Below, piece after piece: positions 24,602 through 33,610 of a DNA stretch of 47,872 nt. The stretch is from an uncultured Candidatus Saccharibacteria bacterium (GTDB lineage: Bacteria; Patescibacteriota; Minisyncoccia; Phycocordibacterales; SBAW01): the NCBI GenBank assembly GCA_964428705.1, contig CAYRYM010000001.1, positions 1 to 47,872 of the forward strand, given 5' to 3'. The first letter of the stretch is position 1; every line of letters starts with the position of its first letter. A model generated the notes under the pieces. The model saw nothing but the letters and a program-made list of their open reading frames with translations, ran no database searches and was not told the DNA's origin. The position numbers were made by a program, and so were the translations under genes.

Positions 24602-25749
24602 TACTTGTCTACTATACGCGCAAAGACTTTCTCGCGCATCTGTACCGCTATCTTGTCCCAGTCGTACTCAGCCTCAACCAGTGCGCGGCCACGCTCCGAT
24701 ATTTCCTGTGCCTTTTGCGGGTTTGCCAATACTTCCTTAACTTTATCTGCAAGCGCTTGCGGGTCATCCACCGGCACTATCCAAGCAGTTTCACCATCGC
24801 GGGCGTAGTCGGCAATGCCCCCTACCCCGGTTGTAATAAGCGGCAGGCGCGACGCAAGCGCCGATATAAATGCGTTGCCCAAGCCCTCGGAGCGGCTGTT
24901 GGCTACAAAAATGTCGGAGGCCCGGCGGTACGCCGTAACCTCGTCGCGCGTTACTTGGCCCGCAAACATGACCCTATCCCCTACCCCAAGCTCTTTCACC
25001 AACTCCTTGAGCATAGCCTCGTCTTGGCCGCCGCCCACTATTAAAAATTTTATGTTGCTCGACAAAAGCGGCAGCGCGCGTATGACTATGTCCTGCGCCT
25101 TTTGATGCTCGAGCCTCGAGGTGTTTACCAGCCACACATCGCCATCCTGTTTGCCCCACTTGCGCTTTATATCCTCGACCATCGCCGGGTCAAAGCTCTC
25201 CTTAAGGTCCTTGGGGTTGGCGCCGTTGCGTATGAGCTCTATGGGTGCGCTAGAGCCGCGCCGCGGCGGCCATGTGGAGAGATACTCCGAGATAGACTGT
25301 ATAACCTCCGCGGTGCGAAAGCCCTTACTGATAAGCGGCAAAAACGGCCTGATGCGCAGGCGGCCAAACACCTTATCGTACGAGTCGCCGTCCTGGAGCG
25401 TAAGTATGTGCGGAACGCGCATGCCAAGCATGCCGGCGAGCATGGTCGGAAAGAGCATGTAGGTCATCATGGCCCACACCCCGTCAAAGCGCTGCGCCTT
25501 GTAAAGCGAGCGCGCCTTGAGCGCGGCAAGCAGCGGAAAAAGGACCTTGCCCATATACGAGCCGCCGCCTACGCGGTAGACCATGACGTTGCCTATTTTT
25601 TCCTCTTTTGTGTCGTCGGCGGTAAACCGCAACGTGACCATCAAAAACTCTACGTCTTGGATGCGGTCGGTTATTTCTTTAATGGCGCCCTCGGCCCCCG
25701 ACACGTTGCGCGGATAGTACGAGAGCGAGAATATTAAAATCTTTTTCAT
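24601..25749 (-). CDS. GT4 family glycosyltransferase
   Basis: MKKILIFSLSYYPRNVSGAEG at the N-terminus. ANSRSEGLGNAFISALASRLPLITTGVGGIADY is the EX7E region. TAATG overlap with the HD gene. Confidence 0.8.
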   Translation of the reverse strand: MKKILIFSLSYYPRNVSGAEGAIKEITDRIQDVEFLMVTLRFTADDTKEEKIGNVMVYRVGGGSYMGKVLFPLLAALKARSLYKAQRFDGVWAMMTYMLFPTMLAGMLGMRVPHILTLQDGDSYDKVFGRLRIRPFLPLISKGFRTAEVIQSISEYLSTWPPRRGSSAPIELIRNGANPKDLKESFDPAMVEDIKRKWGKQDGDVWLVNTSRLEHQKAQDIVIRALPLLSSNIKFLIVGGGQDEAMLKELVKELGVGDRVMFAGQVTRDEVTAYRRASDIFVANSRSEGLGNAFISALASRLPLITTGVGGIADYARDGETAWIVPVDDPQALADKVKEVLANPQKAQEISERGRALVEAEYDWDKIAVQMREKVFARIVDK

Positions 25750-26603
25750 GCCTTGTTCTTCTTTATCTCCTCTATATATGCCTTAAGCGTATGCTTCTGC
25801 TGCCAGCCGAGCGCCTCTAGCTTGCTTGTGTCCATGGCGCCGGAAGAGCGCGAGCTCTTTGTGGCCGGCAGGTGCACTACCTCGCCTCCAAACATATGCG
25901 CCACATCAAGCAATGAGTAGACCTCTTTGGCGCAGATAGGATACTCGTCATTACTCCCCTTCTCCCCCGCCAAGACAATACCATCTACCGTGTCGTCTAT
26001 GTGCGTAAATGCGCGCGTCTGCTCGCCTGTGCCACGCACCTCGTGCGGCTTGCCCGCCAAATAATTTTGTTTAAACGTCTCTATGACCGTGCCGTAGTTG
26101 TTGACCCCTGCGCGCTCGCCCGGCCCGTACACGTTATAAAAGTACGTAATGGCGAACGGCAGGCCGTACCAAGCGCCGTAATACGCAACAAGCTCCGAGT
26201 TGGCCGCCTTGCCCCAGGCATAGGGCGAGAGGTCGCGCGCCTCAAACTTGGTCGAGGAGCCCGCGTACACGAGCTTGCATCCCTTGGCGCGCCAAAACTC
26301 CAACACCGCAAGCGTTCCGGCCATGTTTTAATCAAACACAACGTCCGGCTCCTCGAGACTCTTGGCGATGCGAGAGTACTCGCCCAGGTGGTAAATAATG
26401 TCAGGAGTCTCAGGGACCAGCTTTGCAATGTCTTTGGTATGGCCCTCGCGGTACTCCACGCCGGCAACATGGTTGTCGCGCGAGCCCGTAAAGTAGTTGT
26501 CTAAGGAAATTACTTTGTGGCCGTCAGCAACAAGCCGCGCGCACAGGTGCGAGCCGATAAACCCGGCCCCGCCGGTCACGAGTATGAGTTGTTGTGCGGC
26601 CAT
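25746..26603 (-). pseudogene. extended-SDR NAD-dependent epimerase/decarboxylase (UXS-like) split by one in-frame TAA
   Basis: ORFs 26328..26603 ([15 protein letters not shown]...EEPDVVFD*) and 25746..26324 (MAGTLAVLE...SPYAWGKAANSEL, YxxxK) are in the same frame. They are separated only by TAA (26328-26330) and AAC. Joined, they read ...VVFD*NMAGTLAVLE, which is the conserved N-x-x-GT-x-N-x-LE region of SDRs. Confidence 0.75.
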
Positions 26604-26629: not shown

Positions 26630-28072
26630 CTACTCTATTGTAAACTCATCTTCTGATCCCCCGGTTACCGGCTTGCGCCGCACCACCATGACGCTCGCAA
26701 CGCCTAGGCCTACTATGCCGCCCAGGCCCGCAAACGCGGTCCACAAAGGCAGCACAGCGTTACTGCTTGCTGCCGACGCCGCAAGTGACGGTGGCGCCGG
26801 CTCTTCTGACATACCGGATGTTGATGATGCTTCAGGTGCCGCGGCGGCCGGTACATCTATATAGACTTCCGGAATAATTAAAGGAGCATCTGTTGCTGCG
26901 GGCCCAGCCGGCACAACTGCTGGTAATGCTTCAGATTTTGCGGCCGGCGCCGAGTATACGACTTGTGTGCCGTCCGGGTAGTAAAGTTTTGCGTCAGTAG
27001 CCTCAAATCCGAGCGTAGCCGCGGATATATTTATGGCCGAGCCCTCGAGCACCACCGAGTGCTCCGGGAGCACAAAGGTACTGTCGCCCTGCTTAACTAC
27101 CCACAACGAGAGGTCTAAGTCGCGACCGGAGTTGTTTTGTACGGACACGCCGCCCTGCGGAAGTGCCACAAGCGCAACCGAGGCCGGCTCTGCCGTTACC
27201 GTTATACGGCTTGTGGTGCGCAGGCTTGTGTTGGTTATTGTCAGCTGGACAGCGTACGTACCCGGGTAGCTAAAGTGATGCATCACCCACGGGCCCTCGG
27301 CAGTCGTGCCGTCGCCAAAGTTCCAGTAAAACTTGGCGTAGTTTATAACGTCCCTGTCGCGATCATAAGCGGTGGCGACAAACTTGGTATCGGCGCCGAC
27401 GATAACCACTCTGTCGCTGCCGGCCGATGCAAACACCTGCGGCAGGGGCGGCGCCACATAGCCGGGGTTAGAGGTTGATTTGCCCGAGGAGCCGGAGCCG
27501 CTCTCCTGCGCGGGCGGCGTGTAGCTCTCCGTCGCATTGTCGGCGCCCGGCGTGGGCAAGGCTTGGAGCCACGTGCTCGATGCCATCTGCAAACTTGTGC
27601 CATTGTCACTGCCTCCCTGGCTTGCGGTGTAAGTCACCGAGTCTAGTGTGCTGCCCGAGCCGTCTGCCAGCGAGACCGTTGTGCCGGTGTTGTTTAAAGT
27701 AAGAGATGCCTTGGCAACCGAGTAGCTGCCGGTGTACTCGCCCATAAATACAGACGGGTCGCTTGTAAGCACTAAATATCCGTGTGCGGGGATTGTCAGC
27801 GAGCCGCGCCCTACCCCGCCTTGAGGGTCCGTTATGGTGTGGTTGGAGCTATCAACTATGCGCCACGAGCCGGAGCCCGAGCCGCCCACCAACATGACAT
27901 CCTCTGAGCCGGAGTTATACAGCTCGACCCACTCGCGCCCGGCATCCGTGCCGGCGGGGTTGTACATAACCTCATTAATAGAGACCGCAGCATGGGCAGC
28001 CGCGGGCAATGCGCACGAAAATATAAAAATAAAGGAGAGTTTAACTGCTTGGCTCGCGATGCTTCTTGTCAT
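26630..28072 (-). CDS. surface protein with lamin-tail domain, PKD domain and C-terminal membrane anchor
   Basis: Signal peptide MTRSIASQAVKLSFIFIFSCALPAAAHA. LTD: VSINEVMYNPAGTDAGREWVELYNSG. PKD: FYWNFGDGTTAEGPWVMHHFSYPGTYAVQLTITN. C-terminal helix LPLWTAFAGLGGIVGLGVASVMVV followed by RRK. Confidence 0.75.
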   Translation of the reverse strand: MTRSIASQAVKLSFIFIFSCALPAAAHAAVSINEVMYNPAGTDAGREWVELYNSGSEDVMLVGGSGSGSWRIVDSSNHTITDPQGGVGRGSLTIPAHGYLVLTSDPSVFMGEYTGSYSVAKASLTLNNTGTTVSLADGSGSTLDSVTYTASQGGSDNGTSLQMASSTWLQALPTPGADNATESYTPPAQESGSGSSGKSTSNPGYVAPPLPQVFASAGSDRVVIVGADTKFVATAYDRDRDVINYAKFYWNFGDGTTAEGPWVMHHFSYPGTYAVQLTITNTSLRTTSRITVTAEPASVALVALPQGGVSVQNNSGRDLDLSLWVVKQGDSTFVLPEHSVVLEGSAINISAATLGFEATDAKLYYPDGTQVVYSAPAAKSEALPAVVPAGPAATDAPLIIPEVYIDVPAAAAPEASSTSGMSEEPAPPSLAASAASSNAVLPLWTAFAGLGGIVGLGVASVMVVRRKPVTGGSEDEFTIE

Positions 28073-29972
28073 GGTGCGACCCCTCTATATCCGGGTCGAC
28101 AGAGAGCATAGCATGTAGAGTCTCTTTGGGAAGGGAGGCGGGTTTTGACGAGCTTTTTGCGACTTTGTCCAGAGTATCCTTGAGGTCCGGGGAATGTTGT
28201 GGCGTTGAGTGTGCGTGCGGTTCCGCTTTAGGCGCCCCTGCCTTTGGAGCCTCGGGCTTTTTGGCGGTTACGGCCGCAAGGGCATCGCGCAGGCTTGTTG
28301 AGCCCTCGAGTGCGGGCTTTTCTACCTCCGGCTCAAGACGGGGCTTGGGCGGGGGTGCGGCGCGCACCGGTTGGCGGCGCGGCGCCGGAGCCTTTTCAAT
28401 ATGCGTATGGTTGTGGACATGCACCTGCGGTGCTGGCTGAGGCGCAGGCGCTTCTACCCTGACCGCTTGTATGATAGTGGGAGCAGGAGTAGGTGCCGGA
28501 GCGGGCACCGGCACAACAACGGTGGTGTGATGCGTAGGAGCCGGCGCGGGAGCTGCACGCGCTGGCGCCGGTGCCGCTGGGCGCGATGCAGCCGTCTTTG
28601 TCGCCGTATTGCCGTACTTGGGCTTAGGAGGCTCGACAACAAGCGGCTCCACGCTCTGCCACTTCTCTATCGCAGCCTCGACCTCGGGCCTAGGCTTGGC
28701 AAACTGGTCGCGCGAGCTCTGCAAAACTTTTTGCGTGTTGTCCTCTGGGGTGGCGTCAAACGGCGGCAGGGTTGTGGCGCTAAAGGGCGGGCTGCCCACG
28801 CCGTCTATCATAAGAGTCAGGTAAATCTGGGCAAACCCGAGGTTAACCAGGTCGGTCGCCTCAAACTGCGGCGCAAACACCGTCTCTAATGTCTCGGCGT
28901 CAAACGGCCCCACGCGGAAGGCCACCGTCGTGCCCACGTTGCCAAACACCGCATCGCGCACCTCCTCCTCCATCTGCTCGACATACTGGTGCGCGATGAT
29001 GAGGTTAAGCTTGTACTTGCGCGCCTCCGACAGGATGTCGGAGAATGACTCGTTGGCAAAGTTCTGGAACTCGTCCACGTAAAAGTAAAAGTTGGGCAGC
29101 GTCTGCATATTGGCGGAGCTGACATCGGCGCGGCTCATAGCCGCCAGGTATATCTTGGTGACCAGCATGGAGCCCAAGAGCGTCGCGTTGACCTCGCCTA
29201 CCCTGCCCTTGGAGAGGTTCATGATCAGTATCTTTTTTTGGTCCATGATCTCGCGGATATCAAACGAGCTCTTGGGCTGGCCCACAATGTTGCGTATAAG
29301 CGGGTTGGAGGTAAACTGGCCTATTTTGTTTTGTATGGCCGGGGTCGCGTCTTGCGTGTAGCGGTCGGTGTAGTTGGCAAACTCATCGACCCAGAAGCTT
29401 TTAACTATGGGGTCCTTAACGTTCTCGACCACCTTCTTGCGGAATGCTTTGTTGATGAGCATGCGGTTAACGTCGAGCAGCGTCGCACCCTCGTACTCAA
29501 GCAAAGCCAGCAATGTGTTGGAGAGTATGTACTCCATACGGGCTGACCATGCATCTACCCAAATCTTGCGGAAGGCCGAGAGCAGGCCCGAGACAACCAG
29601 GTGGCGCTTGTCGTACCCCACGTCCTCCATCACGTTAAAGGCCACAGGATACTCCATGTCAAACGGCGCAAAGTACACCACGTCTTTAATGCGATGCGCC
29701 GGCACGTACTCCATAATCCGGTCGGCGGTCGAGCCGTGCGGGTCTATAAACGCCATGCCCTCGCCGTTGCGGATGTCCTGTATGGCCATGTTCTCCAGCA
29801 AGGTGGACTTGCCCATGCCGGTCTTGCCGATGATGTACATGTGGCGCGCGCGGTCGCGGCGCTTGATGCCAAACGGCAGGGGTTTCCCGCGCGAGTTGGT
29901 CTCGGCAAAGTACGTTATCTTATTTGCGTCCTCAAGCATTGCTTTAATTGTACCACTGCCCGCTATAGACAC
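28041..29972 (-). CDS. VirD4/TraG/TraD-like P-loop ATPase (type IV coupling-protein family) with a Pro/Ala-rich tail
   Basis: Walker A IIGKTGMGKSTLLENM. Walker B FYFYVDEFQNF. SEARKYKLNLIIAHQYVEQM...GNVGTTVAFRV is typical of the TraG-D C-terminal region. No N-terminal TM helices. The last ~200 aa are low-complexity P/A. GTG start at 29972 (first ATG at 29939). Confidence 0.7.
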   Translation of the reverse strand: MSIAGSGTIKAMLEDANKITYFAETNSRGKPLPFGIKRRDRARHMYIIGKTGMGKSTLLENMAIQDIRNGEGMAFIDPHGSTADRIMEYVPAHRIKDVVYFAPFDMEYPVAFNVMEDVGYDKRHLVVSGLLSAFRKIWVDAWSARMEYILSNTLLALLEYEGATLLDVNRMLINKAFRKKVVENVKDPIVKSFWVDEFANYTDRYTQDATPAIQNKIGQFTSNPLIRNIVGQPKSSFDIREIMDQKKILIMNLSKGRVGEVNATLLGSMLVTKIYLAAMSRADVSSANMQTLPNFYFYVDEFQNFANESFSDILSEARKYKLNLIIAHQYVEQMEEEVRDAVFGNVGTTVAFRVGPFDAETLETVFAPQFEATDLVNLGFAQIYLTLMIDGVGSPPFSATTLPPFDATPEDNTQKVLQSSRDQFAKPRPEVEAAIEKWQSVEPLVVEPPKPKYGNTATKTAASRPAAPAPARAAPAPAPTHHTTVVVPVPAPAPTPAPTIIQAVRVEAPAPQPAPQVHVHNHTHIEKAPAPRRQPVRAAPPPKPRLEPEVEKPALEGSTSLRDALAAVTAKKPEAPKAGAPKAEPHAHSTPQHSPDLKDTLDKVAKSSSKPASLPKETLHAMLSVDPDIEGSHHDKKHREPSS

Positions 29973-29985
29973 GCCCGCACAAGCC

Positions 29986-29994
29986 TTTATACTA
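29986..29994. promoter_or_regulatory. overlapping divergent -10 boxes (TATACT on plus; TAGTAT/TATAAA on minus)
   Basis: The 27-bp spacer 29973-29999 reads GCCCGCACAAGCCTTTATACTATCGCG. TATACT ends 6 nt before ATG 30000. Confidence 0.35.
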
Positions 29995-29999
29995 TCGCG

Positions 30000-30482
30000 A
30001 TGAAGGAATCATCATTGTGGCTGCGCTTGGGCGTATGGTGGCTGGCGCTTACATTTTTATACTGGGCGCTGGCGCTTATGGGCTATGGCTGGGCGCTCGA
30101 CTGCCTAGAGGCATGCACCGCCGTTGTGGCCCCCGACAGCGCGTGGTGGGTTAATCTTTTGGGTATGTTTGTGCCGCTGGGCCCCAACAACATGTCGTAC
30201 GCCGCGCTCTTTTTGCTCAAGCCGATCATACTCGCCTTCCCCACGCTCTCCGGCACAGTAACCTCCGCCTATGGGCTTATAACAATTGCCGCTGTGCTCA
30301 CGCTTGCACTCGGCATATGGGCCACGCGCGCTATAGAGCGCGTACTGTGGAGGCTGTCCCTGCACCCCGCACTTAAAGTCGTAGCCAACCTCGCAATCTT
30401 GCTTGTGCTCACGCTTGTCGCAGACCTTGCGCTCTTTGGCGGCCACTGGGTGTCTCTGGAAATCCTCCGTCAGTCGCTCTAG
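30000..30482 (+). CDS. polytopic membrane protein, unknown function
   Basis: From ATG 30000: MKESSLWLRLGVWWLALTFLYWALALMGYGW..., about 160 aa with 4-5 hydrophobic helices. The listed ORF start 29601 would lie antisense inside the ATPase gene. Confidence 0.5.
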   Translation: MKESSLWLRLGVWWLALTFLYWALALMGYGWALDCLEACTAVVAPDSAWWVNLLGMFVPLGPNNMSYAALFLLKPIILAFPTLSGTVTSAYGLITIAAVLTLALGIWATRAIERVLWRLSLHPALKVVANLAILLVLTLVADLALFGGHWVSLEILRQSL

Positions 30483-30600: not shown

Positions 30601-31551
30601 ATGTCAGCAGTTTCTAGCCTACGCGACCTATTCTCCCGGCAAGCAAAAGGACGTGCACCTGCCGACTCAGACTTAGCTGCACTAGCGAGATTTATCTTGC
30701 TCGAGAGTGCCGAGAAGAAGAGCGGCACTACGTACGTAAGCGACGCCGAGCTTGATAACAAAAATAAGTTCAGGGCGGGCAAAGAGGCTCTTACTCTACT
30801 GTCTCTTTGGAATGAAGGCGGCTCAATGCCAAAAACGTTCCGGGTGCTGCTCGACGCACTTCTGGAGGCTTGGGTTAGCAGCTTCATTGACGCCAAGCTC
30901 GAAAAGGATATCGTGGATGCCCTGCTGGCTCTTGATGAGCTGGATGAAAAAGAAAAAGGGCAACTGGAGGAAGCGCTGCGGATGTGCGGCAAGGAGCATT
31001 TGTACTATCAGCCACAGAAGCTGCTGCGTATCCTTACTGGCGCGGGAGATGCAAGCAACGATAGTGTGGTGAAGTGGGCCTTCAAAACGCTGGGCAGCAA
31101 AGTGAATACTGACCACCTGCGCTTCGTCGCGATCTGCCTGTCAGCATGCGGCGAAAGTAGCGACAACGCGTCCAAACTTGAAGGGGCGGCAAAGTATCAC
31201 ATCCAAGTCGCCGCAAAGACACTGACTGTAGCGGAGAACATGAGTTTTGCCGATGTACGTGGCGGACCATTCAGGCCAATGGGGAGAGCGAGCGAGCTCA
31301 CTCTCCACACGTCCACGCTTGTTGAGTATGTGTGGGTCACCTCAAAGATGAACGAGACGCTCAAGAAATCTGCAGAAGGAGCCAACGCATGGCTCAACGC
31401 AGCAGAGCGCCAGGCACTAGAGCGGATGGGAGCGGCTGAAAAGCGAAGCTTCGATATCAAACTCACCGTCAAGATCTATCCGCACGAGAAGGACTGGTAT
31501 TCGCGCAGAAGCGAGCTTGAGCCACTCCAGACTCTCTCTCATACGGTTTGA
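30601..31551 (+). CDS. hypothetical protein (orphan, helical-looking)
   Basis: 316-aa ORF. Good SD (AGGAG at 30589-30593) 7 nt before the ATG, and its own terminator. I recognise no motif. Confidence 0.6.
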   Translation: MSAVSSLRDLFSRQAKGRAPADSDLAALARFILLESAEKKSGTTYVSDAELDNKNKFRAGKEALTLLSLWNEGGSMPKTFRVLLDALLEAWVSSFIDAKLEKDIVDALLALDELDEKEKGQLEEALRMCGKEHLYYQPQKLLRILTGAGDASNDSVVKWAFKTLGSKVNTDHLRFVAICLSACGESSDNASKLEGAAKYHIQVAAKTLTVAENMSFADVRGGPFRPMGRASELTLHTSTLVEYVWVTSKMNETLKKSAEGANAWLNAAERQALERMGAAEKRSFDIKLTVKIYPHEKDWYSRRSELEPLQTLSHTV

Positions 31552-31560
31552 AAAGCCAGA

Positions 31561-31586
31561 GCCCGGCCGCAAGGCCGGGCTTTTTT
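31561..31586. terminator. bidirectional intrinsic terminator
   Basis: GCCCGGCC-GCAA-GGCCGGGC followed by TTTTTT. Lies between convergent genes (stops at 31551 and 31588). Confidence 0.75.
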
Positions 31587-31587
31587 A

Positions 31588-32733
31588 TTACTGGTATTGG
31601 ATAAAGATGGGGGTCGGCTTGAGGTCGAGCACCTCCTGCTTTGTCAGCAGGCGCGGGGGCTCCTCCTTGAGGTCGTTTTTGTAGAATATCTTTACGCCCG
31701 TAAACTGCACCGGCTCGGGCGCAACCGTGTGGTAGTAGGTATTCTTCTTGCGCGCCGGGCTCCCCCATCCGTCCATCTGCACCACCACCTGCACCTCGGG
31801 TGTCGGCACAATAAGCTCTACGTCCGGGAGCATGTTTTGCGTAAAGCGGTGCAGCAGCAGTATCTTGGGCGGCAGGTTGTGCTCGCGCACAAACTTAGAC
31901 AGGTAGTCTATGGCCCAATTAATTGTCGCAGCGTCGGTCGTACCAATAACGTCGCCCGGCGCATCCGTGCCCTGCATGTCAAACTCCGGGTCTATGGCCA
32001 GGTGCACCTGCGGCATCGCCCAGTACTTATCCAGAAGCGGCACCTCGTCTTGCACGCTCGAGAGGCCAACCTGGATATCGAGTATCACAATGCCGTCAAT
32101 TTCCTTAGCGTACTCTATAGCCTTGTCTACCTGCGTGTCGGGCATGCGCAGGCGGTACTTGCCGTCTTTGCCGGGTGCACCTTGCGCAGTTACGTCTATA
32201 TACTCTATGGCCGGCATCACGGGGGTTGTAGGGTCGGCGGTCTCCCATGCCTTTACCTCGGCGCGCAGCCTCTCCAGCACGACATCCTTCTCAAACTCGC
32301 CCAGTATCCCCATCTTGGTGGAGTAAAAGTTGCCGTAGTAAGCGACTATACGCTTAAACGGGAGTATTGCGCCCGGCAGGGGCTCGGCGGTGCGCGCAGG
32401 CCACAGGGGTTTGGTAGTAGTAACTCCGGTAAAGTCGTTTTGCATAAACGCCGTGTAGTACGGGCTCGACGTTGCAACCTGTGCAAGCGCCAACAGGCGG
32501 CGGCGATAGTCCTCTACATCAAGCACGGGCTTTGGCGCCTCTTTTTTAGGCAGGAGCTTGGCAAGCGCCGAGGTGGTGGTGGCTGTGTCGGTGCCATACG
32601 ACACCGAGGTAAGCGCCGGCAGGAAAAAGTAGGCCGCGGCCACCACTATAGCCAGGCCCAGCACGAGCGCGAGTATATGCACGAGGGTGCGGCCGCGGCC
32701 GGCACCGCGGTTAGTTGAGCGATCCGATGACAT
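31588..32733 (-). CDS. membrane-anchored extracytoplasmic protein, unknown function
   Basis: 381 aa. N-terminal anchor LVHILALVLGLAIVVAAAYFF. Conserved-looking blocks IVAYYGNFYSTKMGILGE, IVILDIQVG and HLAIDPEF. Family not recognised. Confidence 0.6.
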   Translation of the reverse strand: MSSDRSTNRGAGRGRTLVHILALVLGLAIVVAAAYFFLPALTSVSYGTDTATTTSALAKLLPKKEAPKPVLDVEDYRRRLLALAQVATSSPYYTAFMQNDFTGVTTTKPLWPARTAEPLPGAILPFKRIVAYYGNFYSTKMGILGEFEKDVVLERLRAEVKAWETADPTTPVMPAIEYIDVTAQGAPGKDGKYRLRMPDTQVDKAIEYAKEIDGIVILDIQVGLSSVQDEVPLLDKYWAMPQVHLAIDPEFDMQGTDAPGDVIGTTDAATINWAIDYLSKFVREHNLPPKILLLHRFTQNMLPDVELIVPTPEVQVVVQMDGWGSPARKKNTYYHTVAPEPVQFTGVKIFYKNDLKEEPPRLLTKQEVLDLKPTPIFIQYQ

Positions 32734-32953
32734 TGTCGCGCTGATGAGTAGTAGGCGCAGCGTTTTCTACAAAGTGGTCGTGGCCGTGCCTGGTGCCGCG
32801 CGCCAGAGACTCGCCGCGCAAAAGAAAGCCCACACCCGCCAGTGCCGCCCCTGCCGCAACCAGGACAACCGTCTTCCACGAGCCGGGGATGCCAAGGTAG
32901 GGCGTGACCACGACAAGTACACCCAGCGCAATGACGGTCATTTCTTTAGACAT
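32711..32953 (-). CDS. small two-helix membrane protein
   Basis: 80 aa. VIALGVLVVVTPYLGIPGSW and VVLVAAGAALAGVGFLL. Overlaps the downstream gene by 23 nt. Confidence 0.45.
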   Translation of the reverse strand: MSKEMTVIALGVLVVVTPYLGIPGSWKTVVLVAAGAALAGVGFLLRGESLARGTRHGHDHFVENAAPTTHQRDNVIGSLN

Positions 32954-32962
32954 AGTCCTATA

Positions 32963-33610
32963 TTACTCCCCCTCTACTATTACGACAAATTCTCCGCGCT
33001 GTTTGCCCTCGTTTTGCTCAAAATACGCGAGCACCTCCGCGGCAGTGCCCACCCGGTGCTCTTCATACATCTTGGTGATCTCGCGGTAGACGCCTATGCG
33101 GCGCGCGGGGATAGCCGAGGCCAGCGCCTGGAGCGTCTTCATAATCCGGTGGGGCGACTCATAAAATACGCATGAGCGCTCGCTTGTGGCAATCTCCTTA
33201 AAAAGCGTCTGCCTCCCCTTCTTAAGCGGCAGAAATCCGTAAAACACAAAGGTGGCAGCCCGTAGGCCGCATACCGACAGCGCTGCCGCAAGCGCGGAGG
33301 CACCGGGTATCGCTTCAATCAAGACGCCCGCATCGCGCGCGTGAGAGACAATCTCCTGCCCCGGGTCCGACACGCCGGGCGTGCCGGCGTCGCTAACGAG
33401 CGCCACATGCTTGCCCTGGCCCAAGAGCAACGGGATCTTGGGCAGAGTGACGACCGGCGTATGGATATCAAAGTGGCTTAGGAGCTTTTTGGTAACCCGT
33501 GTGTCCTCGCACGCCACAAAGTCGGCCTCCTTTAATATGCGCAAGGCGCGCAGGGTAATATCTTCGAGGTTGCCTATGGGCGTGGCGACAATGGAAAGCC
33601 GGGGCTGCAT
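32963..33610 (-). CDS. rsmI: 16S rRNA (cytidine1402-2'-O)-methyltransferase
   Basis: LSIVATPIGNLEDITLRALRILKEADFVACEDTRVTKKLL and VSDAGTPGVSDPG are canonical RsmI motifs. A compact 215 aa. Confidence 0.85.
   Translation of the reverse strand: MQPRLSIVATPIGNLEDITLRALRILKEADFVACEDTRVTKKLLSHFDIHTPVVTLPKIPLLLGQGKHVALVSDAGTPGVSDPGQEIVSHARDAGVLIEAIPGASALAAALSVCGLRAATFVFYGFLPLKKGRQTLFKEIATSERSCVFYESPHRIMKTLQALASAIPARRIGVYREITKMYEEHRVGTAAEVLAYFEQNEGKQRGEFVVIVEGE

Follow-up and report, generated by a model that had tools for sequence, protein, structure and literature searches.

ATPases of the type IV coupling protein (T4CP) family are known as the substrate receptors and translocases of type IV secretion systems (T4SSs), not as insertases, and the coupling protein TraJ of pIP501 has no transmembrane (TM) domain of its own. 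The locus described here lies at positions 26630-30482 of a stretch of 47,872 nucleotides (nt), referred to as the window (GCA_964428705.1, contig CAYRYM010000001.1), from a tiny, host-dependent bacterium of the Candidate Phyla Radiation belonging to the Paceibacteria. It contains the gene of a soluble VirD4/TrwB-type coupling ATPase, the gene of a surface protein with a lamin-tail domain (LTD) and a PKD domain, here named c4, and, on the opposite strand, a small open reading frame (ORF) with four predicted TM segments (the 4-TM ORF). Comparison of genomes indicates that the ATPase is the motor part of a split coupling protein, whose membrane module is encoded as a gene of its own elsewhere in the genome, and that in one large order of Paceibacteria the motor gene appears to have moved into a cell-envelope gene cluster, where it is conserved together with c4.

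The closest described counterparts of the ATPase are the orphan VirD4-type T4CPs of Patescibacteria, which belong to the same family (Quinonero-Coronel et al., 2025; PMC12102498). A T4CP is present in 2,918 of 3,035 Patescibacteria genomes, with only 148 of 5,713 homologues located near virB4; the T4SS itself lies close to oriC, near yidC-rnpA, and a function in the import of DNA or of other macromolecules has been proposed for it; exaptation of the T4CP, in the words of the authors, "cannot be ruled out" (PMC12102498). The near-universality of the orphan T4CP in Patescibacteria and its distance from virB4 are already published, and the present genome resembles those described both in the distance of the ATPase gene from virB4 and in having its VirB4 cluster beside yidC-rnpA. 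The parts of the paper covered here are silent on short and long forms of the ATPase, on a separate or fused N-terminal module and on links to LTD, PKD, or ComEA-like proteins, and the terms "lamin," "PKD," and "transmembrane" were not found in them (PMC12102498). Neither a split or fused N-terminal module nor a coupling of such ATPases to an LTD or ComEA-like receptor was found in the literature searched.

TrwB of R388 and VirD4 share with the ATPase a P-loop NTPase core with an inserted all-alpha domain, and TrwB superposes on the predicted fold with a TM-score of 0.62-0.64. The ATPase differs from them in its low identity (∼15%), in the absence of N-terminal TM segments from the same chain, in its long disordered tail, and in being encoded by a chromosomal core gene without a relaxase or plasmid context. 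In pIP501, the small 2-TM protein TraI is proposed as the membrane anchor of TraJ (PMC12857230); there, as here, the T4CP of a monoderm-type T4SS would depend on a separate membrane protein for its attachment. The candidate anchors in the present system, namely, the separately encoded membrane module (T4CP-N), the 80-residue protein c5 encoded upstream of the ATPase, and the cytoplasmic tail of c4, are likened to TraI by layout. The system here also differs in being chromosomal, with no relaxase found, and in the size of T4CP-N, which has ∼430-470 residues and a large soluble domain.

For c4, the closest counterparts are ComEA and the LTD proteins of haloarchaea. In sister genomes, the orthologues of c4 contain a bona fide HHH_3 domain (E values as low as 9e-23) and are, like ComEA, membrane-anchored and extracytoplasmic; c4 of the window, however, has an LTD instead of HHH_3, an anchor at the C-terminus rather than the N-terminus, and an additional PKD domain and mini-LTD, and its gene neighbors that of a T4CP and not comEC. 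LTDs occur in archaeal proteins of extracellular DNA metabolism and in ComEC-like proteins (PMC5118699). The haloarchaeal proteins Hvo_1477 and Hlac_1867 resemble c4 in having an extracytoplasmic LTD and are implicated in the handling of extracellular DNA, but they carry nuclease or metallo-beta-lactamase domains, whereas c4 has no catalytic domain (PMC5118699). DNA binding by the LTD is putative in the haloarchaeal proteins and in c4 alike.

Genome and Comparative Samples

The assembly comprises 630 kb in 84 contigs and is ∼85% complete, and its close relatives carry the labels Candidatus Adlerbacteria, Kaiserbacteria, or Paceibacterota. Relatives were sampled as 41 genomes of the order, with this assembly included in the tally of HHH_3 domains, and gene order was compared across 20 relatives and 80 loci of GTDB species, 74 of which could be evaluated for the gene downstream of the ATPase. 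A wider sample of 151 genomes of the order was searched for the c4 family with a hidden Markov model (HMM), and the phylum was represented by 251 evenly drawn Patescibacteria genomes, 227 of them of high quality. TM segments were predicted from hydropathy, and the AlphaFold2 model of the ATPase was built on 50 homologues. Coordinates of all features are collected in Table 1.

The Coupling ATPase

The ATPase belongs to the VirD4/TrwB family, and is neither FtsK nor HerA, by both its sequence and its predicted fold. It matches the Pfam families TrwB_AAD_bind (PF10412; 40 bits, cut-off 20.5, residues 38-355) and TraG-D_C (PF12696; 31.2 bits, cut-off 22), its NCBIfam matches are all partial and all to conjugative coupling proteins, and TrwB is its top PDB match by sequence as well as by profile. 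The Walker A motif GKTGMGKS, which begins at residue 38, and the Walker B motif VDEFQ are invariant in the 50 sequences. In the AlphaFold2 model of the core (mean predicted local distance difference test score [pLDDT] 87.5, pTM 0.87), a helical block spans residues 109-233, and the best Foldseek matches are TrwB structures (1e9s, 1gl6, and 1gki; TM-score 0.62-0.64 over ∼430 columns, E 3e-13), with poorer fits to HerA (0.5), DotL (0.57), and VirB4 (0.54) and with Cagbeta also below TrwB. The model thereby predicts a TrwB-like overall fold with an inserted all-alpha domain. An identity as FtsK was rejected, as no FtsK family in Pfam was matched and a separate bona fide FtsK is encoded on contig C21, and HerA was likewise rejected, as the match to DUF87/HerA reached 22.5 bits against a cut-off of 23.2 and HerA structures fitted worse than TrwB. 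The initial annotation as a coupling-family P-loop ATPase is therefore borne out by Pfam, the PDB profile search, and Foldseek.

The core is followed by a disordered tail of ∼200 residues, and the length of this tail varies, with proteins of 521-790 residues in relatives around a constant core. Two starts are available to the ORF, a GTG at 29972 (28041-29972, 643 residues) and an ATG at 29939 (632 residues), of which the ATG is the more likely because database homologues begin there. With this start, the spacer to the divergent 4-TM ORF measures 60 bp and not the 27 bp given initially.

Over its first 420 residues, the ATPase shares 86-100% identity with the best 120 among more than 8000 proteins from the database. 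Homologues are present in 40 of the 41 relatives and in 249 of the 251 phylum genomes (226 of the 227 of high quality), with at least 50% identity across the whole domain, and most of the phylum genomes hold two copies. The G+C content at the locus is uniform and unremarkable, and no match to the relaxase families PF03432 or PF01076 was found in this assembly, which is 85% complete. Because it is near-universal, syntenic, and uniform in G+C, with no relaxase found, the ATPase gene is regarded as a fixed, non-conjugative chromosomal core gene of Patescibacteria and not as a fragment of a mobile element.

The Membrane Module

No TM segment was predicted from hydropathy in the ATPase polypeptide. 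The absence of the usual N-terminal anchor, which had been noted initially, therefore holds for this polypeptide, but not for the genome, in which a homologue of the missing part is encoded on contig C8. The two copies held by most genomes represent two forms of the ATPase, a short soluble form of ∼500-790 residues, to which the ATPase of the window belongs, and a long form of ∼800-1150 residues, in which an N-terminal extension of 375-480 residues, starting with TM segments, precedes the ATPase domain. In other orders and classes, 18 of 20 short-form loci have a separate gene for a homologue of this extension, with ∼430 residues, which ends 1-114 nt before the ATPase, and these upstream proteins are 25-35% identical to the long-form extension (E 1e-31 to 1e-74). 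The membrane or N-terminal module is here called T4CP-N and combines TM helices with a domain of ∼350 residues that has no family assignment; it gave no significant match in Pfam, in NCBIfam, or to solved structures in a PDB profile search.

The usual gene order in other orders and classes is a sigma factor, T4CP-N, the ATPase, and then often MnmA. In the present genome, T4CP-N is a separate gene (C8:1-1422), and an MltG-like gene and then MnmA come after it (contig C8:1-3604), whereas in other classes the ATPase stands between T4CP-N and MnmA. Across the order, T4CP-N was found in all 41 relatives and in none of them lay close to the ATPase gene, the distance on a shared contig being, for instance, 133-258 kb. 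Three arrangements of T4CP-N therefore exist, namely, fusion to the ATPase in the long paralogue, a gene directly upstream of the ATPase in other orders and classes, and an unlinked gene in this order. Since fusion and adjacency constitute Rosetta-stone evidence, T4CP-N and the ATPase are expected to work together. On these comparisons, the coupling ATPase appears to be split, with the motor gene in the window and the membrane module as its own gene, and the ATPase gene of this order appears to have left its ancestral place beside T4CP-N and to have moved into a cell-envelope gene cluster. A derivation of other proteins of the locus (c5, the surface protein, or members of clusters c6 and c8) from the long-form extension was rejected, as BLAST gave no matches and the true homologue is the gene on C8. 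A long paralogue of ∼920 residues occurs in about half of the genomes of the order (G002, G007, G013, G014, G021, G027-G035, and G039); none was detected in the present assembly, with its completeness of 85%.

The Surface Protein and Its Pairing With the ATPase

The surface protein c4 begins with a signal peptide-like N-terminus, followed by an LTD (residues 30-171), a linker, a PKD domain (213-295), a mini-LTD-like beta domain (297-376), a disordered stalk of ∼60 residues, a TM helix (443-465, or ∼439-465), and a cytoplasmic tail of 15 residues ending in DEFTIE, and its linkers are rich in Ser and Thr. The LTD scores 77.4 bits in PF00932 (cut-off 34.3, residues 24-149) and is modeled as a beta-sandwich with a pLDDT of ∼90, and the PKD domain scores 48 bits in PF18911 and 41 bits in PF00801. 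All three beta domains are modeled by AlphaFold2 with a pLDDT above 90. Foldseek matched the PKD domain to those of ColG and ColH (TMt 0.66-0.75), and the matches of the full-length model were confined to PKD domains and to generic Ig or S-layer entries. The third domain aligns to the LTD (hhalign probability 92%, E 6.6e-7), which supports its assignment as a shortened LTD. The description of c4 as a secreted, C-terminally anchored LTD/PKD protein in the initial annotation was thus confirmed by the signal-like N-terminus, the two domain matches, and the TM helix.

Among 58 proteins at the c4 position in relatives, an LTD was recognized in 40, HHH_3 in 21, and a PKD domain in 42. By these domain assignments, c4 has a constant part, composed of the PKD domain, mini-LTD, stalk, and TM helix, and an exchangeable N-terminal head, for which a full LTD alternates with a ComEA-type helix-hairpin-helix (HhH) domain, the latter replacing the N-terminal LTD in about a third of the orthologous loci. 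The C-terminal anchor also exists in two types. In the Adlerbacteria-like type, a cytoplasmic tail of 15-25 residues ends in [DE]-E-[FY]-x-I-E, as in DEFTIE of the window, and in Kaiserbacteria-like orthologues the chain stops with the TM helix, one such terminus being ...SPWTLGLLGVIALAGGAFILL. In the Kaiserbacteria-like loci L055-L101, many c4 C-termini have the form ...F(K/R)SPWTLG(L/F)LG.I.LAGGAFILL-COOH without a cytoplasmic tail and resemble a C-terminal sorting signal of the GlyGly-CTERM or PEP-CTERM style, and the Adlerbacteria-like tails were seen to end in EF(E/D/T)IE.

The stop codon of the ATPase (TAA 28041-28043) lies inside the c4 ORF, which starts at ATG 28072, so that the 32-nt overlap reported initially is correct. 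A protein with a signal peptide is encoded next after the ATPase in 57 of the 74 evaluable loci, ∼54 of these proteins being clearly of the c4 type, and in the remaining loci an epimerase or GT4 gene directly follows the ATPase. In most of the 41 relatives, c4 is directly downstream of the ATPase, and the HMM of the c4 family detected members in 134 of the 151 genomes. The two genes overlap by 4 to ∼50 nt in most Adlerbacteria-like relatives and are separated by gaps of 1-19 nt in Kaiserbacteria-like ones, while apparent overlaps of up to 89 nt come from over-long ORF calls. Gene order and family searches thus indicate that the ATPase and c4 are co-conserved across one large order of Paceibacteria, and the overlap suggests that they are probably co-transcribed and co-translated by translational coupling. 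In one locus (L044:7948-8559), an IS200-like transposase gene (Y1_Tnp) lies between the ATPase and c4 genes, and the usual overlap is broken.

Type IV Secretion and DNA-Uptake Context

No VirB-type, relaxase, or pilus genes are present near the ATPase in the window. The absence of such genes, as claimed in the initial annotation, is valid locally but fails genome-wide for VirB4. Contig C39 carries (C39:3-6297) a 5'-truncated VirB4 homologue, followed by genes of secreted and TM proteins (a 391-residue ORF, a 207-residue 2-TM protein, and a 439-residue TM protein), with Jag, YidC, and RnpA (jag-yidC-rnpA) encoded convergently to this cluster, in which the T4SS cluster that Patescibacteria typically have near oriC is recognized. 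The genome also encodes ComEC (C11), FtsK (C21), and PilB/PilT-type ATPases (C3 and C11). Across the phylum, VirB4 was detected in 246 of 251 genomes compared with 249 for the ATPase, and among the genomes with a completeness of 99% or more, just three combine the ATPase with a lack of VirB4 matches. The possibility that the two are uncoupled in Patescibacteria was considered and rejected, these three exceptions being too few to argue for independence. As both are near-universal, roles that depend on the T4SS and roles that do not cannot be told apart by phyletic distribution.

A connection of c4 with nucleic acids is suggested by its exchangeable head. HHH_3 was found above the cut-off in eight of the 41 genomes; the domain belongs to the gene next after the ATPase in six of them and to c4-type ORFs in a seventh, and no HHH_3 (ComEA-type) domain was found in the remaining 33 genomes, including this 85%-complete assembly, in which c4 of the window gave no HHH_3 match. 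ComEC is present in 38 of the 41 relatives. As the HHH_3 domain in c4 is nearly always the only ComEA-type domain of its genome, it provides the strongest evidence that c4 handles DNA. The presence of this head in about a third of the orthologous loci thereby gives comparative support to the nucleic-acid link proposed in the initial annotation, and a role of the ATPase/c4 pair in nucleic-acid uptake is plausible from these domain comparisons. A joint loss of ComEC and c4 was hinted at by the 41 relatives, in which all three genomes without ComEC also lack c4, and was rejected in the 151 genomes.

Interpretation

For the route by which Patescibacteria acquire nucleic acid from their hosts or surroundings, import by their T4SS, which is essential and lacks a relaxase, has been put forward, so far with no receptor or substrate-recognition part assigned to it. 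Patescibacteria cannot make nucleotides, and recent evidence for feeding on host RNA fits the proposed nucleic-acid uptake. The locus offers candidates for this route in the form of a universal coupling-type motor, its separate membrane half, and an order-specific, probably co-translated surface protein with an LTD or ComEA head. The reading that combines these elements, to which a rough probability of 0.45 is assigned, is that the motor is docked at the membrane via T4CP-N and perhaps also via c5 and the c4 tail, that c4 captures nucleic acid, and that this nucleic acid passes through the T4SS or ComEC. A hexamer of the ATPase would be located at the inner face of the membrane, held by T4CP-N and possibly also by c5 and the acidic-aromatic tail of c4, and would power or gate the passage of extracellular or host nucleic acid bound by c4 through a channel encoded elsewhere, for which the oriC-proximal FATA-type T4SS (VirB4 on C39) and ComEC (C11) are the candidates. 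The docking of the motor on separate membrane proteins is proposed by analogy with TraJ and TraI of pIP501 (PMC12857230). A more specific proposal, in which the split or fused coupling protein is an import motor that in one large order of Paceibacteria is wired to a surface receptor with interchangeable LTD and ComEA HhH heads and feeds host or environmental nucleic acid through the chromosomal T4SS or ComEC, and in which the LTD is a hitherto unrecognized extracellular DNA- or RNA-binding module functionally equivalent to ComEA, is doubtful; if it were true, the ATPase, T4CP-N, and the receptor would form the nucleotide supply line of organisms unable to make nucleotides. If the link between the ATPase and c4 holds, a T4CP would be tied to nucleic-acid handling and a function would be given to a bacterial LTD; if it fails, the gene pair would still be a synteny marker at the level of the order, and the split T4CP architecture would still need explaining.

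Several observations weigh against the uptake reading. Both nucleic-acid binding by the LTD and an interaction of the ATPase with c4 are inferred. The pairing is limited to one order, with MnmA, AlaRS, or PGK encoded after the same ATPase elsewhere, and the ATPase is kept in genomes without c4 (for example, G013, G033, and G040). Cell-wall and glycosylation genes dominate the neighborhood, in which Mur ligases, MurI, MurA/B, DUF4015, L,D-transpeptidase, epimerase, and 3-5 GT4 genes flank the pair, and the adjacency of the ATPase and c4 could therefore be inherited synteny in small genomes that rearrange slowly. The cytoplasmic tail motif is missing from Kaiserbacteria-like c4 proteins, which end at the TM helix. 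In the sample of 151 genomes, three of the four without ComEC keep c4 and one lacks it, and 16 of the 17 without c4 keep ComEC. In addition, a T4CP homologue of Southlakia, a Saccharibacterium, is reported as not essential, in contrast to other T4SS genes (PMC12102498). The restriction of the pairing to one order, the persistence of the ATPase in genomes without c4, and the envelope genes on the flanks, together with the near-universality of both VirB4 (246/251) and the ATPase (249/251) and the lack of a ComEC/c4 co-occurrence signal, favor synteny without joint function, according to which the ATPase and T4CP-N would be the coupling protein of the universal T4SS, whatever its cargo (proteins or some host material), and c4 an unrelated adhesin or cell-wall protein of the envelope cluster. 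This alternative is somewhat unlikely, as start/stop overlaps of the two genes recur in many families, the repeated exchange of the c4 head for a ComEA HhH, a domain specific to DNA uptake, is not predicted for a plain adhesin, and the ATPase gene has specifically been relocated from its ancestral place beside T4CP-N to c4.

The ATPase could instead serve c4 or the envelope by energizing the insertion, export, or turnover of c4 or of a glycopolymer made by the GT4 and epimerase genes, with which it is co-oriented and tightly packed, and the Ser/Thr-rich linkers and C-terminal anchor of c4 would suit such a role. The signal peptide of c4 is normal, however, so that Sec export would suffice, the T4CP family is known for translocation by T4SSs and not for insertase activity, and the ATPase is universal in the phylum, whereas c4 and the cluster context are specific to the order, which makes this service role improbable. 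The initial annotation had proposed the ATPase, c4, and the 4-TM ORF as a candidate minimal capture and translocation system, which is taken here as a self-contained one with the 4-TM protein as the channel and no T4SS required. The adjacency of the three genes and the lack of VirB genes in the window are compatible with such a system, but the 4-TM ORF occurs in only one of 40 relatives, has only 13 close homologous clusters, and lies in an insertion, absent from relatives, between genes that are adjacent there, while VirB4 (C39), ComEC (C11), and T4CP-N (C8) are all encoded elsewhere in the genome. The three-gene system is largely refuted on these grounds and very improbable, and of the trio only the ATPase and the LTD/PKD protein, and not the membrane ORF, form a unit conserved in the order. 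An origin of the locus as the remnant of a conjugative or mobile element, to which the resemblance of the family to conjugative coupling proteins might point, conflicts with a near-universal gene at a fixed syntenic chromosomal locus, with the uniform G+C content, with the lack of a relaxase match, and with the extreme sequence conservation, and is refuted for practical purposes. The constant co-occurrence with a complete conjugative T4SS that the initial annotation had linked to a mobile-element fragment was found in part: the ATPase nearly always accompanies VirB4, yet it does so as a core chromosomal gene.

Neighboring Genes and Other Features

Across the order, gene order in the 20 relatives and 80 loci comprises Mur ligases, an RsmI-like gene, c5, a variable slot for a TM-anchored extracytoplasmic enzyme, the ATPase, c4, an epimerase, and 3-5 GT4 genes, and the corresponding features of the window are listed in Table 1.

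Table 1. Features of the ATPase/c4 locus and its upstream neighborhood, with positions in the window
Feature	Positions	Strand	Basis
Soluble VirD4/TrwB-type coupling ATPase, 632 residues, short form of a phylum-wide family	28041..29939	-	Pfam, homologue alignment, no TM
ATPase core, residues 1-430, P-loop NTPase with inserted all-alpha domain (predicted)	28650..29939	-	AlphaFold2, Foldseek, motifs
ATPase C-terminal tail, ∼200 residues, Pro/Ala-rich, His-containing, low-complexity	28041..28649	-	Translation
Overlap of ATPase stop and c4 start, 32 nt	28041..28072	-	TAA 28041-28043 inside c4 ORF, c4 ATG 28072
Surface protein c4, 480 residues, start ATG 28072	26630..28072	-	Pfam LTD and PKD, AlphaFold2, hydropathy
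4-TM ORF, 160 residues, 4 predicted TM segments, no Pfam or NCBIfam match	30000..30482	+	ATG 30000
Orphan of 316 residues, second gene of the window-specific insertion, no family match, joins no synteny cluster	30601..31551	+	
TM-anchored protein of 381 residues, variable slot just upstream of the ATPase	31588..32733	-	Synteny clusters c8 and c6
Two-TM protein c5, 80 residues, conserved cytoplasmic tail	32711..32953	-	Cluster and TM prediction
RsmI-like methyltransferase, upstream edge of the conserved block	32963..33610	-	By eye from sequence, no family search; synteny

The divergent 160-residue membrane protein of the initial annotation corresponds to a real ORF with four TM segments, although its spacer to the ATPase differs from that first given. 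A promoter-like sequence, TAGACA-16-TATACT, ends 6 nt before its ATG, and the single relative with the ORF (G022) has it in the same divergent position. Only 13 homologous clusters, with 63-99% identity, were found among 5.8 billion proteins. Together with the 316-residue orphan, the 4-TM ORF is inserted on the opposite strand between the gene at 31588-32733 and the ATPase, which are neighbors in relatives. Comparison with these relatives points to a real gene in the case of the 4-TM ORF, but to one that is a recent insertion of a narrow lineage and not a member of the conserved module, and the orphan likewise appears to be a recent insertion outside the module. Between the convergent genes of the orphan and the 381-residue TM protein, a perfect GC-rich hairpin of 11 pairs with T-runs on both strands (31558-31583) looks like a bidirectional terminator.

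The variable slot, which is occupied in the window by the 381-residue TM protein without a Pfam match, often holds a DUF4015 glycosyl hydrolase-like protein in relatives (Pfam E 3e-83). The c5 cluster has 34 members across the 80 loci; its gene immediately precedes that of the ATPase at 11 of 76 loci, and in the window three genes separate the two. As a conserved upstream neighbor of the ATPase in the order, c5 is a candidate membrane tether. Its C-terminal motifs fall into an Adlerbacteria-like form (...FVEN...GI(G/T)SLN) and a Kaiserbacteria-like form (...(E/G)(I/V)SPI), and this split follows the anchor types of c4. Downstream of c4, an extended short-chain dehydrogenase/reductase-type epimerase/dehydratase gene (25746-26603, minus strand) is interrupted at 26328-26330 by a single in-frame TAA, two codons after which an ATG is present; each half matches PF01370, and the gene may be a recent pseudogene, the result of a sequencing error, or a two-piece gene.

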